Virus genome (UHGV): UHGV-0191815
DNA length: 53,795 nucleotides
Source of the DNA: a virus
Direction: 5' to 3' (one strand)
This document shows, piece after piece, positions 6,292 to 53,795 of this stretch. Position 1 is the first letter of the stretch, and the number at the start of each line of letters is the position of its first letter. A program made the position numbers and the translations under genes. A model generated the notes under the pieces. The model saw only the letters and a program-made list of their open reading frames with translations. It was not told the origin of the DNA and searched no databases.

Positions 6292-6945
6292 TTATCTTTC
6301 CCCCGTGTATTCAACGTGTCCGATACATCCATCAATAATAGCTTGCGCCATATTGCGATAATCACGCGTAAATTCACTGTCACGGCTAAAGTCGATCTCG
6401 CTTGCCGCGTCGTTACCCATAACCTTAGTGGCAAGTGCGAACGCTATTCCAGCGAGCGCCTTTTCTTTAGGATCTACATACAGCCTGAAAGAGTATGATG
6501 CCAATGATTGAGGCTTCTCTTCACAATCATCTTCCTTGCTTTCACATATGCCCCATTTATCACCAACATATTTAAATTTAACGACATCGAGAACCCTCCC
6601 GCTCGTAAGACCTACACAATCAAGCCACACACCAACCGGAGGCTTTTCGCCTGCCAGCCATTCCGTTTTTTCTGGTTGCGTTTCGCAATCACTGCGCTCA
6701 TCTTCGATTAATTCATCAATGATTTCACTTTCTTTATTCATACCGTCATCATCCTTTTCAGAGAAACGTATAAAGCGCCACGTATTAGCCATCAACGTAT
6801 AAGATTCGCCGCCAACCTTAGATCCTGCGTAATACTCCGTACCAAAATCGTAATAGCTCGAAAACGTTGTCACTTCGAAAGGCGGAATATCAACGCGGAA
6901 CCTGTGAAGCATTGTGCCTATTGCACGAGGTGTTTTATTTGCCAT
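6292..6945 (-). CDS. Hypothetical acidic protein (217 aa); last gene of the minus-strand operon
   Basis: Long ORF with ordinary composition and an acidic central region (DELIEDERSDCETQPEKTE); start codon sits 2 nt downstream of the stop of the 58-aa gene. Confidence 0.55.
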   Translation of the reverse strand: MANKTPRAIGTMLHRFRVDIPPFEVTTFSSYYDFGTEYYAGSKVGGESYTLMANTWRFIRFSEKDDDGMNKESEIIDELIEDERSDCETQPEKTEWLAGEKPPVGVWLDCVGLTSGRVLDVVKFKYVGDKWGICESKEDDCEEKPQSLASYSFRLYVDPKEKALAGIAFALATKVMGNDAASEIDFSRDSEFTRDYRNMAQAIIDGCIGHVEYTGER

Positions 6946-6947
6946 AT

Positions 6948-7123
6948 TACGCCACCGTTACATTGTCAACTTTGATAAAGTATTCAGGGTGATTTTCTAT
7001 TTCGTGCTTGAAGTGCGCGTGACACAATCGCCACTCCCGCGCCTGGTTGTGGAAGTAATAAACATATTCGCCATCAATCTTATACAAAATGCCCGTAGGT
7101 TTAGCCATGTAGTAACGAACCAT
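6948..7123 (-). CDS. Hypothetical small protein (58 aa)
   Basis: MVRYYMAKPTGILYKIDGEYVYYFHNQAREWRLCHAHFKHEIENHPEYFIKVDNVTVA; its ATG overlaps the ninB stop (TAATG), suggesting translational coupling; not in the ORF track because it is under 60 aa. Confidence 0.4.
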
Positions 7124-50589: not shown

Positions 50590-50602
50590 CAGGAGAAAAA
50601 CC

Positions 50603-53600
50603 ATGAGTAGCGGCGGCGGCAAAGCCAAAACACCAACATTGTTAAACGATAACCTGTTCCACAAACAGTTTTATCGCGTTTTGGACATTCTCAGCGAGGG
50701 ACCAATATATGGCCCTGTAAACCAGAAAGCGCCATTAAACAGCGTGATGCTCAATGACACGCCTATCACTGACACAAACGGAAACACGTCAGTTCCCGGC
50801 GTTAGCGTGGCGTGGCGCAATGGTACGGCTGACCAGTCACCAATTAACGGCTTCAACGCTATTGAATCAACGGTTATCGTCAACGCAAAAGTAACTCACG
50901 ATACACCAATAATCAGGACCATATCAGATCCAAACGTTAACCGCGTAAGGCTGAATCTTGGCGTTGATTCTCTGGTTCAGTCAGATGATAAGGGCAATCA
51001 GTACAATACATCCGTTACGTTGATGGTTGACGTTAAGCCTTCATCTTCAACAACGTGGTCACTGGTTAAAGATATTCACATTGGCCCAGGTAAACAAAGC
51101 GGTGAGTACCTAGAGGCGCACATCATCCAGGCGCCGGATGAAAAACCGTTTGATATTCGCGTTCGCCGCGTAACGCCGGACAGCACTGGCGATCTTCTTC
51201 ACAACGACACCAGGTGGAGCAGTTACAGCGAGATAATCGACGATAATTTATCTTATCCTCACACCGCTGTAGCGGGCGCGGTAATTGACCACGATCAGTA
51301 TACTGACACGCCGACACGCACCTATCACATGCGCGGGCTGATTGTTGACGTGCCTGATAACTACGACCCGGAAACACGCACATACTCAGGTTTATGGCTT
51401 GGTGGCTTCAAAAAGGCATACACCAACAACCCTGCATGGCTTTTCAGGTATCTGGTTAAAAATGAACGTTTCGGGCTTGCCCGCCACGCTGGTTACATAG
51501 ACGTTGATGACGGCGCACTGTATACGCTTTCTCAATACTGCGACCAGTTGGTAAACGACGGTTACGGCGGCCTTGAACCACGCATGACGCTTAACGCTTA
51601 CATCACTGAGCAAATGAGCGCCCGCGACTTGCTGGATAACATTGCAGGCATGTTCCGTGGTATCGCGTTATGGGACGGGCAGCGACTTACGGTGATGATT
51701 GATGCACCGCAGGATCCAATTGCCACCATCACAAATGCAAACGTCGTTGATGGCGCGTTAACTCGTTCAAGTATCGCTCGCGCAGAATCTTACAACGCCG
51801 TTATCGTGTCATGGACTGACCCGGAAAACGGTTGGGAGCAATCAAAAGAATACGTGGCGGATGATGAATTGATCGCCCGCGATGGTTACAACGAAACCAC
51901 GTTAGAGGCTTTTGGTTGCACATCACGCGGGCAGGCGTACCGCGCTGGCAAATGGCTGATAGAAACAGCAAAACGCGAACCCTCAAAATTCACGTTTAAA
52001 ATGGCCCGTGACGCAATTCACTTCACCCCGGGGGATATTATAGAGATACTCGACAATAACCGCGCTGGCGCTCGTTTGGGCGGTCGTATCGTGGCGAATA
52101 ACGGGAAAGTGATAACTGTAGACAAGGTTGATTCTGACCTGGTGGCGGCTGGTGACACTATCAGCTTACTGGACAGCGACGGCAAGTTTAAAAAACATCA
52201 GATCACTGGTGTTAACGGAAACAATATTACCCTTTCGGCTGCGCCCGCATGGATTCGTAACGGAACCGTATTTGCTGTTTCTACTGAATCCGCAAAACCT
52301 GTTCTGTGCAGAATCACCAGCGTAGCGGAAACAGAAAATAACAGCGTGTACACCATCGAGGCTGCACAGCACGATCCGCACAAACAGGCTGTAGTTGATG
52401 AAGGAGCAATCTTCGAGGTAAACAACGACACGCTTAATCACTTCCGCGTGCCGAACATTGAAAATCTGAAGGTGTTAAACGTTGGTTCTGAGACAGTACA
52501 ATGCCGCGCAACATGGGAAACACAGACGACAACGCATCGCCTGACCTTTGAAATACGCGTATATAACACCGAAGGCCGCATTGTGGCAACTTATGAAACC
52601 ACGAATTACCGCTATGACTTTTATGGCCTCGACGCTGGCAGCTACACGCTTGGTATTCGCGGGCGTAATGACACTGGCATGAAGGGTGCGGAAAGTATTG
52701 TTGACCTGGTTATTGGTGCGCCAGCGGCCCCGATTGGAGTTAATTGGGTTCCAGGTGTCTTCCAGGCAACGGTATATCCGATCAGCAAAACAACCCTGAC
52801 CACTGACACGGCATATGATTTCTACTACTCAGGTGAAAATCAGATCACTGACCCGTCAAAAGTAACCACGCTGGCGCAATTCGCCGGGCGAGGCTACCAA
52901 TGGACTTTTGGCGGCATGAACACGGGACACACCTATTACGTTTATGTGCGCGCGCGTAATGCCTTTGGTGTGTCAGACTTCGTTGAGGTATCAGGTAAAC
53001 CAACTGAAAACTTCGACGAAATCAGCGACTACGTGATGAAGGATGTCATGGAGTCAGAACAGTTCAAGGGCATGATTGGCGACATTAAAGATCTTGGCGA
53101 CCGCGCTGATCTTATCGAAAGCGCTACAAATGACCTGAAAAACGCTACTGATAACCTCAAAACTGCAACTGACAACCTGACAAACATCACTGACGAATTG
53201 AGGACTGACACGGACGGCCTAATCACAGAGACAGGGGCCATAAAAGCTGACACAGACGCACTGAAAAAAGAGACGGAAGATCTTTATAAAAAGGTTGGGG
53301 AAAACGCCGACGATATTGGACAGCATGAGGCAAGAATAGATTTGCTGGAGGTATCCAGCGAAAAAGTTGACAGTGAACTGGCGCAAGCAAAAGCAAGCCT
53401 GCAAAACGCGTCATTGGCGCTTATCAATAACTCACTTGCACAGACAAACACGCGGGTTACTCTCACTGCCCAGTACAAGAAAGGCAGAACAGAGACGAAG
53501 GCTGAAATTGACCGAATTGACAACGTTATTGCTGATGAGAAACAGGCCACGGCTGAATCGCTGAAAACCATCACAGCAGAAATGAACACGATGGATTCTA

Positions 53601-53795
53601 ACCTCAAAGGTCAGATCTCAAGCGTGGAACGCGCAGTGGCTGACGAGGCCAGTGCCCGCGCTGAAGCAATTAACAACGTTAACGCATCAATAAACAATCT
53701 CGACAAGAAAACCGACGCCAGCGTGAACCGCCTTGATCAAGCTATTGCCGACGAAACCAGTGCCCGTACCCAGGCTGTAAGCGATGTGAAAGCCT
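50603..53795 (+). CDS. J: Tail tip / host-specificity protein J (N-terminal 1064 codons; runs off the window end and probably continues at nt 2..1363)
   Basis: Strong collinear similarity to lambda gpJ (...ILSEGPIYGPV..., ...DIRVRRVTPDSTGD..., ...EAFGCTSRGQAYRAGKWLIETA...); no stop before the window end; RBS aggag. Confidence 0.9.
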   Translation, partial: MSSGGGKAKTPTLLNDNLFHKQFYRVLDILSEGPIYGPVNQKAPLNSVMLNDTPITDTNGNTSVPGVSVAWRNGTADQSPINGFNAIESTVIVNAKVTHDTPIIRTISDPNVNRVRLNLGVDSLVQSDDKGNQYNTSVTLMVDVKPSSSTTWSLVKDIHIGPGKQSGEYLEAHIIQAPDEKPFDIRVRRVTPDSTGDLLHNDTRWSSYSEIIDDNLSYPHTAVAGAVIDHDQYTDTPTRTYHMRGLIVDVPDNYDPETRTYSGLWLGGFKKAYTNNPAWLFRYLVKNERFGLARHAGYIDVDDGALYTLSQYCDQLVNDGYGGLEPRMTLNAYITEQMSARDLLDNIAGMFRGIALWDGQRLTVMIDAPQDPIATITNANVVDGALTRSSIARAESYNAVIVSWTDPENGWEQSKEYVADDELIARDGYNETTLEAFGCTSRGQAYRAGKWLIETAKREPSKFTFKMARDAIHFTPGDIIEILDNNRAGARLGGRIVANNGKVITVDKVDSDLVAAGDTISLLDSDGKFKKHQITGVNGNNITLSAAPAWIRNGTVFAVSTESAKPVLCRITSVAETENNSVYTIEAAQHDPHKQAVVDEGAIFEVNNDTLNHFRVPNIENLKVLNVGSETVQCRATWETQTTTHRLTFEIRVYNTEGRIVATYETTNYRYDFYGLDAGSYTLGIRGRNDTGMKGAESIVDLVIGAPAAPIGVNWVPGVFQATVYPISKTTLTTDTAYDFYYSGENQITDPSKVTTLAQFAGRGYQWTFGGMNTGHTYYVYVRARNAFGVSDFVEVSGKPTENFDEISDYVMKDVMESEQFKGMIGDIKDLGDRADLIESATNDLKNATDNLKTATDNLTNITDELRTDTDGLITETGAIKADTDALKKETEDLYKKVGENADDIGQHEARIDLLEVSSEKVDSELAQAKASLQNASLALINNSLAQTNTRVTLTAQYKKGRTETKAEIDRIDNVIADEKQATAESLKTITAEMNTMDSNLKGQISSVERAVADEASARAEAINNVNASINNLDKKTDASVNRLDQAIADETSARTQAVSDVKA

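Follow-up and report, generated by a model that had tools for sequence, protein, structure and literature searches.

UHGV-0191815 is a virus genome of 53,795 bp, and the whole of this stretch is referred to below as the window. Its layout raises the question of how a phage with a largely lambdoid gene set came to have its late genes downstream of the repressor, the N-like antiterminator and the recombination genes, with the replication genes on the opposite arm. The answer favored here, with good confidence, is that the layout is old and fixed across a whole lineage, and that it represents the canonical P22/ES18/lambda order with one early block inverted. Judged from its sequence, the window is a newly added member of the mEp-immI (mEp021-like, "immunity I") group of temperate E. 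coli siphophages. This group has been characterized as Nus-dependent, "non-lambdoid" temperate coliphages (Negrete-Mendez et al. 2025, PMC11893012). The architecture has already been published, as it is visible in GenBank records and in PMC11893012; the words "inversion", "inverted", "rearrangement" and "ES18" are absent from the text of that report. Added here are the one-block-inverted relation to ES18 and P22, a corrected identity for a gene that had been labeled "Cro-like", and a divergent sister lineage with the same layout.

Gene order of the two early arms

Gene identities were obtained from Pfam and PHROG searches of the open reading frames (ORFs) of the window. The searches confirmed the genes and strands listed in an original prediction made from the sequence alone: from the repressor on, genes lie on the plus strand, and the replication arm occupies the minus strand from 13603 down to 6075, where it ends against int. 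The same prediction had nearly everything from the repressor onward on the plus strand, which holds overall, except that two minus-strand islands interrupt the tail genes. The sign of the GC skew flips at ~6 kb and at ~13-14 kb, the two strand-switch points. The genes concerned, in order of position, are:

4849-6117, plus: tyrosine integrase, int (Pfam Arm-DNA-bind_3 and Phage_integrase)
6075-6254, minus: ORF of 59 amino acids (aa) at the Xis position, where the leftward arm ends; 43 bp shared with the 3' end of int
6292-6945, minus: conserved 217-aa homologue of mEp021 gp03 (Pfam/PHROG and relatives' loci)
7123-7554, minus: NinB/Orf recombination mediator (PF05772, 2e-47; 54% to P22 and ES18 NinB)
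8596-10011, minus: DnaB-type replicative helicase, 471 aa (PF03796, 2.5e-75; 58% to P22 gp12)
10030-11172, minus: exonuclease-like protein (phrog_704, 3e-139)
11182-11778, minus: Bro-N/KilAC protein (Pfam/PHROG)
12293-13345, minus: replication initiator, Lin1244_N, O-like (37% to P22 gp18 over a 90-residue stretch)
13349-13603, minus: winged helix-turn-helix (wHTH) protein, 84 aa, first gene of the leftward arm (phrog_4617, 6e-19; HTH_36)
13910-14557, plus: CI-like repressor, HTH_3 and Peptidase_S24 (96% identical to Rep021)
15057-15347, plus: N-like antiterminator, Gp17 homologue (phrog_271, 7e-11; 92% identical to Gp17)
15497-16608, plus: erf and ssb (PF04404, 3e-42; PF00436, 4e-23)
20034-22344, plus: Dam methylase, DUF6378 protein, ORF 21002-21559 and a second DNA methyltransferase (Pfam/PHROG)
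22604-24616, plus: ninG, rusA, one small ORF and Q (PF05766, 1e-67; PF05866; PF03589, 2e-31), with NinG itself at 22604-23305 and the Q-family antiterminator at 23888-24616
29909-31059, plus: holin, lysozyme and spanin (relatives' annotation and P22 comparison)
32755-50589, plus: TerS, TerL, portal, head, tail tube, tape-measure protein and M/L/K/I (ES18-like virion module, 35-72% at the amino-acid level, collinear)

A MarR/Ren-like protein was also listed between the helicase and NinB in the leftward arm. For the 59-aa ORF, profile searches gave no family match; its mEp021 counterpart is annotated as an HTH protein. The mEp021 counterpart of ORF 21002-21559 is annotated as a membrane protein. 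The N-like protein carries the arginine-rich motif N15 A R17 E R19 R20 R21 I K R24, and the conserved arginines of Gp17 are R17, R19, R20 and R24 (PMC11893012).

The first gene of the leftward arm was the one called "Cro-like". By position the label is apt, but in sequence the product matches replication initiators, in their N-terminal wHTH domain (phrog_4617, replication initiation protein), and not Cro. The gene occurs in two allelic types in the group (~51% vs. at least 84%). No Cro or CII homologue was recognizable among all ORFs of at least 20 aa in 13600-15060.

As had been predicted, the layout departs from those of lambda and P22. In these phages Q and the late genes are downstream of the cro/replication arm; in the window they are downstream of the repressor/N/recombination arm, and replication and ninB are on the other. 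The nin genes are indeed split, with ninB on the minus strand and ninG on the plus strand 15.05 kb away, and the Xis-position gene ends the replication arm. Other elements are shared with P22 and lambda, namely a repressor gene between two divergent early promoters and antitermination of the N and Q types. Lambdoid phages can be defined functionally, through a common gene order that permits viable hybrids. Of the features expected of them, the window has a CI-type repressor, N- and Q-type proteins, nut-like sites and putative divergent promoters, but not the canonical order, which is int-xis-recombination-N-cI on one side and cro-(cII)-replication-nin-Q-lysis-head-tail on the other.

The synteny check against lambdoid references resolved this difference into one inverted block, with the remainder collinear. 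The P22 genes erf (27254, minus), c2 (31013, minus), gene 18 (32488, plus), gene 12 (33300, plus) and ninB (34732, plus) map to 15497 (plus), 13910 (plus), 12293 (minus), 8596 (minus) and 7123 (minus) of the window, respectively. This erf-to-ninB block occupies 27.2-35.2 kb of P22, and every strand in it is flipped in the window; the succession of helicase and then ninB along the operon is the same in both. P22 ninG, gene 23, gene 19 and gene 15 are collinear in the window, on the plus strand with the late genes. The P22 and window proteins compare at 53% for erf, 41% for c2, 58% for the gene 12 helicase, 54% for ninB, 51% for ninG and 34% for gene 23.

The Salmonella lambdoid siphophage ES18 (AY736146) yielded the same result. 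Its order is canonical: int, xis, recombination, N and c2 run leftward, and cro, O, helicase, nin, Q and the late genes run rightward. Relative to the window, ES18 ssb, c2 and ninB are inverted as one block, and ninG, Q, the lysis genes and at least 18 virion genes are collinear. Homologues in ES18 include the repressor (41%), NinB (54%), NinG (52%), Q (36%) and the lysis genes; the virion module is collinear from portal to I/J at 35-72% (amino acids), with the capsid at 66% and L at 72%. Both phages have adjacent erf and ssb genes (according to the ES18 annotation) and minus-strand morons between tail genes. The window differs from ES18 in that its int faces the other way, it has a third nut site, and it lacks a cro/cII homologue.

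On the sequence comparison, the simplest description of the inverted block would be recombination genes, N and repressor on one side and replication initiator, helicase and ninB on the other. One breakpoint would fall in the nin region, between ninB and ninF/ninG, and the second between the recombination genes and xis/int. We infer that a single inversion, and not several events, produced the layout. Identity to P22 and ES18 is much the same (34-58%) for genes on the two sides of the breakpoints. Canonical order is also found in ES18, Klebsiella phage RAH1 (capsid 64% to the window) and Cronobacter phage ENT47670 (TerL 70%, NinB 57%, RusA 59%), which come nearest outside the group in the head and NinB genes; the closest outside relatives of the capsid are ES18-like phages at ~65%.

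Conservation of the layout among relatives

Window segments 6000-26000 and 30000-53795 were used as megablast queries against 50,697 phage records. For the first segment, large matches were found only to seven records (mEp554, mEp044, mEp010, mEp515, mEp013, mEp021 and MagusPhagus), at 85-91% nucleotide identity. The sole other match was of 37-61 bp, to Phapecoctavirus-type (phAPEC8-like) phages, where two records label it ssb and most label it hypothetical protein. The second segment matched the same seven records exclusively, at 85-94% identity over 80-98% of the query. No lambdoid phage with a megablast-level DNA match was found for either segment. All high-scoring segment pairs of at least 500 bp to mEp554, mEp021 and MagusPhagus were on one strand and in order, totaling 42.9, 37.7 and 42.4 kb, respectively.

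The same order was found in uncultivated genomes and in prophages. A NinB-based scan of IMG/VR retrieved 42 loci. Contig truncations were allowed for, and in a few of the loci the wHTH gene scored under the cut-off. In 42 of 42, ssb, erf, N and rep lie on one strand (minus), followed by wHTH (where matched), O, exo, hel, ninB, gp03 and xis on the other (plus) and then int (minus). The int-to-Q segment aligns at one place, collinearly, in 50 complete E. coli chromosomes, in 30 of them at a coverage of at least 80%. In the prophage of E. coli strain 127, the PGAP annotation lists a truncated abgT and int; on the opposite strand a hypothetical protein, NinB, helicase, BRO, Lin1244 and a MarR-type wHTH protein; and then a LexA-family repressor, ERF, SSB, methylases, NinG, RusA and an antiterminator.

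A helicase relative at 57% identity led to a sister lineage on metagenomic contigs of 46.6-52.5 kb. It is uncultivated and is represented by the Logan contigs SRR16327198_12785 and SRR16327202_5712 (L070 and L071; the helicase relative is P0006). One strand carries SSB, ERF, the N-like protein and the CI-like repressor, and later Int, the fibre and J; on the other, an HTH_3 Cro-type gene and a 291-aa protein come first, followed by exonuclease, DnaB, small genes, NinB and two further genes. The comparison covers J, fibre and int through to the small genes past ssb, the contigs retrieved being without the nin-Q-lysis part. Over that range, order and strands are identical to those of the window from J/fibre/int through the replication arm to the repressor, N-like gene, erf, ssb and small genes, and the two are collinear gene by gene at 23-73% protein identity (helicase 57%, Rep 56%, NinB 68%, Int 46%). 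The lineages differ in the first two slots of the replication arm, which are filled in the sister lineage by the HTH_3 Cro-type gene and the different 291-aa protein. No close relative of the sister lineage was found among phage records or complete E. coli genomes. Because this collinear lineage is so divergent, the layout is considered old, stable and extended beyond the published group.

Its persistence across lineages whose protein sequences are more than 40% different also marks the layout as a workable alternative design rather than an accident. The lambda-type circuit (a repressor between divergent promoters, N at nut, Q at the late terminator) evidently tolerates a different wiring, in which Q and the entire late operon belong to the N/recombination arm and replication proceeds from the other arm. 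For prophage annotation, this means that replication genes should not be expected upstream of Q in such phages, and that the first gene of the replication arm should not be named cro without evidence.

Control signals and alternative explanations

Signals in the window were located by motif search, consensus match and hairpin scan. Those relevant to the layout are:

13733-13744, minus: boxA-like GCTCTTTAAAAA, nutL in mEp021 nomenclature (motif search)
13745-13909, no strand: divergent control region between the arms, with CTTGCATC-type repeats that are also present at 14722-14730 (putative function, from reading of the sequence)
14563-14580, plus: terminator-like hairpin after the repressor gene (hairpin scan)
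14680-14708, plus: sigma-70-like promoter TTGACT-17-TATATT, the best in 4.5-24.5 kb (consensus match)
14751-14762, plus: boxA-like GCACTTTAAAAA, nutR1 (motif search)
22357-22392, plus: strong terminator-like hairpin with a 16-bp stem, before the nin-Q block (hairpin scan)
22443-22454, plus: boxA-like GCTCTTTAAAAA, nutR2 (motif search)
29810-29884, plus: candidate late promoter TTGTGG-17-TAAAAT (found by eye, below the scan threshold), then a hairpin at 29866-29884, just before the holin gene

The exact boxA-like sequence GCWCTTTAAAAA occurs exactly three times in the genome, at 13744 (minus), 14751 (plus) and 22443 (plus), each time in the orientation of its operon. In the group, nutL and nutR1 precede the repressor gene and gp17, respectively, and nutR2 comes past the methylase genes (PMC11893012); the three boxA-like sites of the window sit at these published positions. 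Gp17 is described in PMC11893012 as acting at three nut sites in mEp021, and the repressor as conferring immunity. The nutR2 site directly follows the hairpin with the 16-bp stem and directly precedes ninF/ninG, rusA and Q. The best promoter-like site is placed between the repressor terminator and the N-like gene, and plus-strand terminator-like hairpins were found at 14563, 17124, 19408, 22357 and 29866. The repressor gene lies between two putative control regions that share the CTTGCATC-type repeats, an arrangement that resembles OL and OR of lambda. The elements at 29810-29884 would fit a Q-dependent late promoter and terminator.

A transcription scheme consistent with these signals can be proposed. 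The CI-like repressor gene would be located between two outward-facing early promoters, as in lambda. From one of them, the N/erf/ssb arm would extend through the methylases, the strong terminator and nutR2 to ninG, rusA and Q, and would continue on one strand to the lysis, packaging, head, tail, J and fibre genes. The other arm would comprise the replication genes, ninB and the small Xis-position gene only, running head-on into int. Early in infection, the N-like protein would modify RNA polymerase at nutL, nutR1 and nutR2, and the modified polymerase would reach Q in one direction and the distal genes of the replication arm in the opposite one. The Q protein would then permit read-through of the pre-holin terminator into the late genes.

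Several points weigh against the inversion or against parts of this scheme. The direction of int is left unexplained by one inversion: int points against the Xis-position gene, with attP on its upstream side. Nor does an inversion account for two stretches that lack a counterpart in P22 or ES18, one of ~6 kb with small ORFs and methylases that separates ssb from nutR2, and one of ~5 kb from Q to the lysis genes. As no Cro homologue was found in the window, the switch may not work like that of lambda. The promoter and terminator calls are consensus matches only, and the total number of promoter-like sites was not above that of shuffled sequences. On folding, each of the three nut regions formed only small hairpins that did not surpass those of shuffled sequences, and the predicted boxB hairpins were not thermodynamically distinctive. 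Finally, neither the polarity of the change (i.e. the ancestral layout) nor the number of events can be read from present genomes.

Some of these points feed the alternative in which there was no single inversion: modules were shuffled stepwise, or the layout is itself older than the canonical one, and the resemblance to an inversion is merely descriptive. The int orientation and the extra gene blocks between ssb and nutR2 favor it; so do the different initiator and first-slot genes of the sister lineage (HTH_3 Cro-type vs. wHTH), which show that further events occurred, and the fact that no inverted repeats marking the breakpoints were identified. On the other hand, five markers (P22) or three (ES18) invert as a contiguous block with the rest collinear, for which a single inversion is the most economical account, and every outgroup sampled has the canonical order. 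This alternative is regarded as unlikely.

The original prediction had attributed the layout to recombination between different lambdoid backbones. In its recent form, two such backbones would have recombined, one giving the replication/ninB arm and the other the N/recombination/nin-Q/late arm. Lambdoid phages are notoriously mosaic, and alleles do vary within the group: there are two types each of wHTH and capsid (the latter at 75% vs. at least 93%) and several identity classes of integrase (~49-50% vs. at least 90%), and one member has a chimeric NinB (described below). However, the layout is invariant in the seven GenBank phages, in all 42 loci, in the prophages and in the sister lineage, and neither of the two stretches searched had a lambdoid megablast match. 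Helicase relatives are found at 88-94%, and then none above 58% among 5.8 billion proteins; NinB falls from 95-98% to 57% among phage records. The best outside matches are thus at most 58% and 57%, compared to 88-99% within the group, and the distance to P22 and ES18 is similar for the genes of the two arms. Recent recombination of this kind is accordingly judged very improbable, and that part of the prediction is not sustained.

Misassembly of the contig, which the prediction had named as the finding that would overturn it, might be suspected given that the window is opened in the repeat-rich J gene, where the assembler broke at a repeat, but an artefactual inverted segment is hardly credible: the same order and strands are present in the seven independent GenBank phages (laboratory-characterized mEp isolates among them), in complete E. 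coli chromosomes and in the 42 IMG/VR contigs, which excludes it, and the published nut-site and terminator experiments on mEp021 fit the layout (PMC11893012). Equally negligible is a programmed or ongoing inversion of the ~8.7-kb segment between nutL (13706-13744, minus) and nutR2 (22443-22480, plus), which have 33 of 38 nt (87%) in common in inverted orientation and flank the repressor-to-methylases segment: every genome examined has one orientation only, no invertase gene was present among the ORFs scanned, and the similarity of the sites is explained by binding of the same N-like/Nus machinery (PMC11893012).

With the single old inversion as the preferred account, a more tentative extension may be considered. 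The inversion might have founded a clade of N/Q/Nus-dependent temperate phages, consisting of the mEp-immI group and at least one deeply divergent uncultivated sister lineage, and might keep this clade recombinationally isolated from canonical lambdoids. Founding and isolation taken together are viewed as possible but doubtful. Within a common host, the isolation would follow from the non-viability of genomes produced by single crossovers in inverted homologous segments. For the immunity-I group, PMC11893012 cites Kameyama 1999 as reporting no viable hybrids with lambda. If correct, the proposal would explain the "non-lambdoid" behavior of phages with a largely lambdoid (ES18/P22-type) gene set, as well as why nutR2, which nearly duplicates nutL, is needed as an additional nut site to bring N-dependent antitermination to Q. 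The layout would in this way offer a simple structural reason for the lack of free exchange between lambdoids and a group that is as common as they are in the human gut.

Group membership and further genes

The remaining features of the window are:

1-1363, plus: J, C-terminal part (continuation across the circular junction)
1821-4604, plus: side tail fibre (phrog_6578, 3e-192)
4634-4657, plus: terminator-like hairpin closing the long plus-strand unit (hairpin scan)
4745-4765, no strand: approximate attP core (from 4756 on, homologous to the attL side of the abgT-integrated E. coli prophage)
46534-47222, minus: island 1 among the tail genes, a ParE-like toxin and a 145-aa ORF
47773-48381, minus: island 2 among the tail genes, a KilAC-domain (antirepressor) fragment and further ORFs
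50585-53795, plus: J, central tail fibre, N-terminal ~1070 codons (frame open to the window end; homologous to ES18 gp29/J)

The 53,795-bp window is a complete, circularly permuted genome that was opened inside the repeat-rich part of J, because its two ends overlap by 5 bp (AGCCT at both) and the J frame is unbroken across the junction. The window starts (1-120) and ends (53676-53795) within tandem coiled-coil-like repeats of J (ASISNLESKTDASVSRLDQAIADE... and ...ASINNLDKKTDASVNRLDQAIADE..., respectively). The assembly probably broke in, or collapsed, this repeat, since J has ~1520 codons here and 1727 in mEp021. The opening inside J is also why int and the fibre gene, at 1-6117, fell outside the part of the window to which the original prediction referred; the mEp-immI and MagusPhagus records are opened at attP. 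Scans of the whole window for tRNAs and Rfam families gave no match.

Assignment to the mEp-immI group was based on synteny, the Rep021-type repressor, the Gp17 motif, the three nut sites and the tyrosine integrase/abgT, all of which were found. Phages of this group are reported to have siphovirus morphology, to depend on Nus and to be excluded by Rep021; synteny within the group is described as conserved, the repressor, Gp17 and three nut sites are reported as well, and the nearest branches in ViPTree are Salmonella and Klebsiella phages (PMC11893012). The window shares with the mEp-immI phages and MagusPhagus their collinearity, Rep021-type repressor, Gp17-type N protein, three nut-like sites and virion module. 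It differs in its integrase (50% to mEp021/mEp554, 93% to MagusPhagus), its SSB allele (58% to mEp021) and its accessory small ORFs. As identity to every record searched was below 95%, the phage is probably a separate species.

T1-like phages had been suggested as a further reference. These phages (Drexlerviridae) are virulent, have neither integrase nor repressor and carry a T1-type structural module. An affinity to them was dropped: the window has an integrase and a repressor, megablast gave no T1-like match, and the closest capsid relatives are ES18-like. The only T1-like link found was indirect. In the sister lineage, the exonuclease gene (L070 9216-9706) has patches that are 71-73% identical in nucleotides to a "DNA repair exonuclease" gene of the T1-like phages Chapo, Sfin-3, SRT8 and BrunoManser.

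Integration was considered from the int-proximal DNA, which is 94% identical to the attL side of the prophage by the truncated abgT of E. coli strain 127. The homology of the window to this prophage begins at 4756; therefore, attP is just upstream of int. The site abgT is that of type II integrases, and the attachment sites of the group are ydaM, abgT and mppA (PMC11893012). The integrase is ~92-98% identical to those of relatives and loci of the same type, MagusPhagus included, and its true start is probably at 4918. A repeated 24-mer, TGTGTACCAAAT(T/A)GTGACCAAATT, flanks the attP core (4662-4685 and 4893-4917), and several repeats of the type ATCGTGTCA(C/T)ATCGT lie between the core and the int start (4780-4875). 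These repeats are probably arm-type integrase binding sites.

Several observations concern individual replication-arm genes. In some E. coli proteins related to the helicase there are ~350 additional aa, and the query aligned over just 51-56% of its length (P0002, P0003 and P0005, 816-821 aa; P0104, 797 aa, LAGLIDADG_3). This suggests an intein or homing-endonuclease insertion in the DnaB of some group members; the 471-aa helicase of the window is without it. The chimeric NinB is encoded at 10001-10420 of one group locus (L050; IMG/VR UViG_2737471838_000004). Its first ~48 residues are nearly identical to the group type, and the remainder is of another NinB lineage. A search for the donor yielded none among sequenced phages and no lambdoid DNA match, and the C-terminal part is just 35-39% to the NinB of P22 and ENT47670. 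When species-representative genomes were scanned for the initiator protein, the matches were confined to distant Lin1244_N domains in unrelated bacteria (30-57%, with one short match of 59 residues at 66%), and the scan was uninformative on host range.

Hardly any sequence separates Q from the late promoter in lambda and P22. The corresponding interval of the window, from Q to the holin terminator (24616-29800, plus), is ~5 kb long and contains roughly 25 small plus-strand ORFs.

The 8-mer CATTTTGT is present in 19 copies, compared to 4.3 expected, and none of 100 shuffles reached 19; ES18 has just 3 copies. It is often found in inverted intergenic pairs (1740/1773, 13864/13916, 14670, 22350/22415, 43578/43604, 48565/48657 and others). 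A longer form, CATTTTGTATA, is kept at homologous sites in mEp021, mEp554 and MagusPhagus: beside the main early promoter, as a pair upstream of the tape-measure gene, and on one side of the t4 terminator/nutR2, where the partner site keeps only the 8-mer. The 8-mer is also present upstream of the helicase and exonuclease ribosome-binding sites and within coding sequence. Because these contexts are unrelated, a single function is not proposed for it.

With respect to the two minus-strand islands, the ParE-like toxin gene of the first and the upstream 145-aa ORF possibly constitute a toxin-antitoxin pair. ES18 carries morons at places equivalent to both islands.

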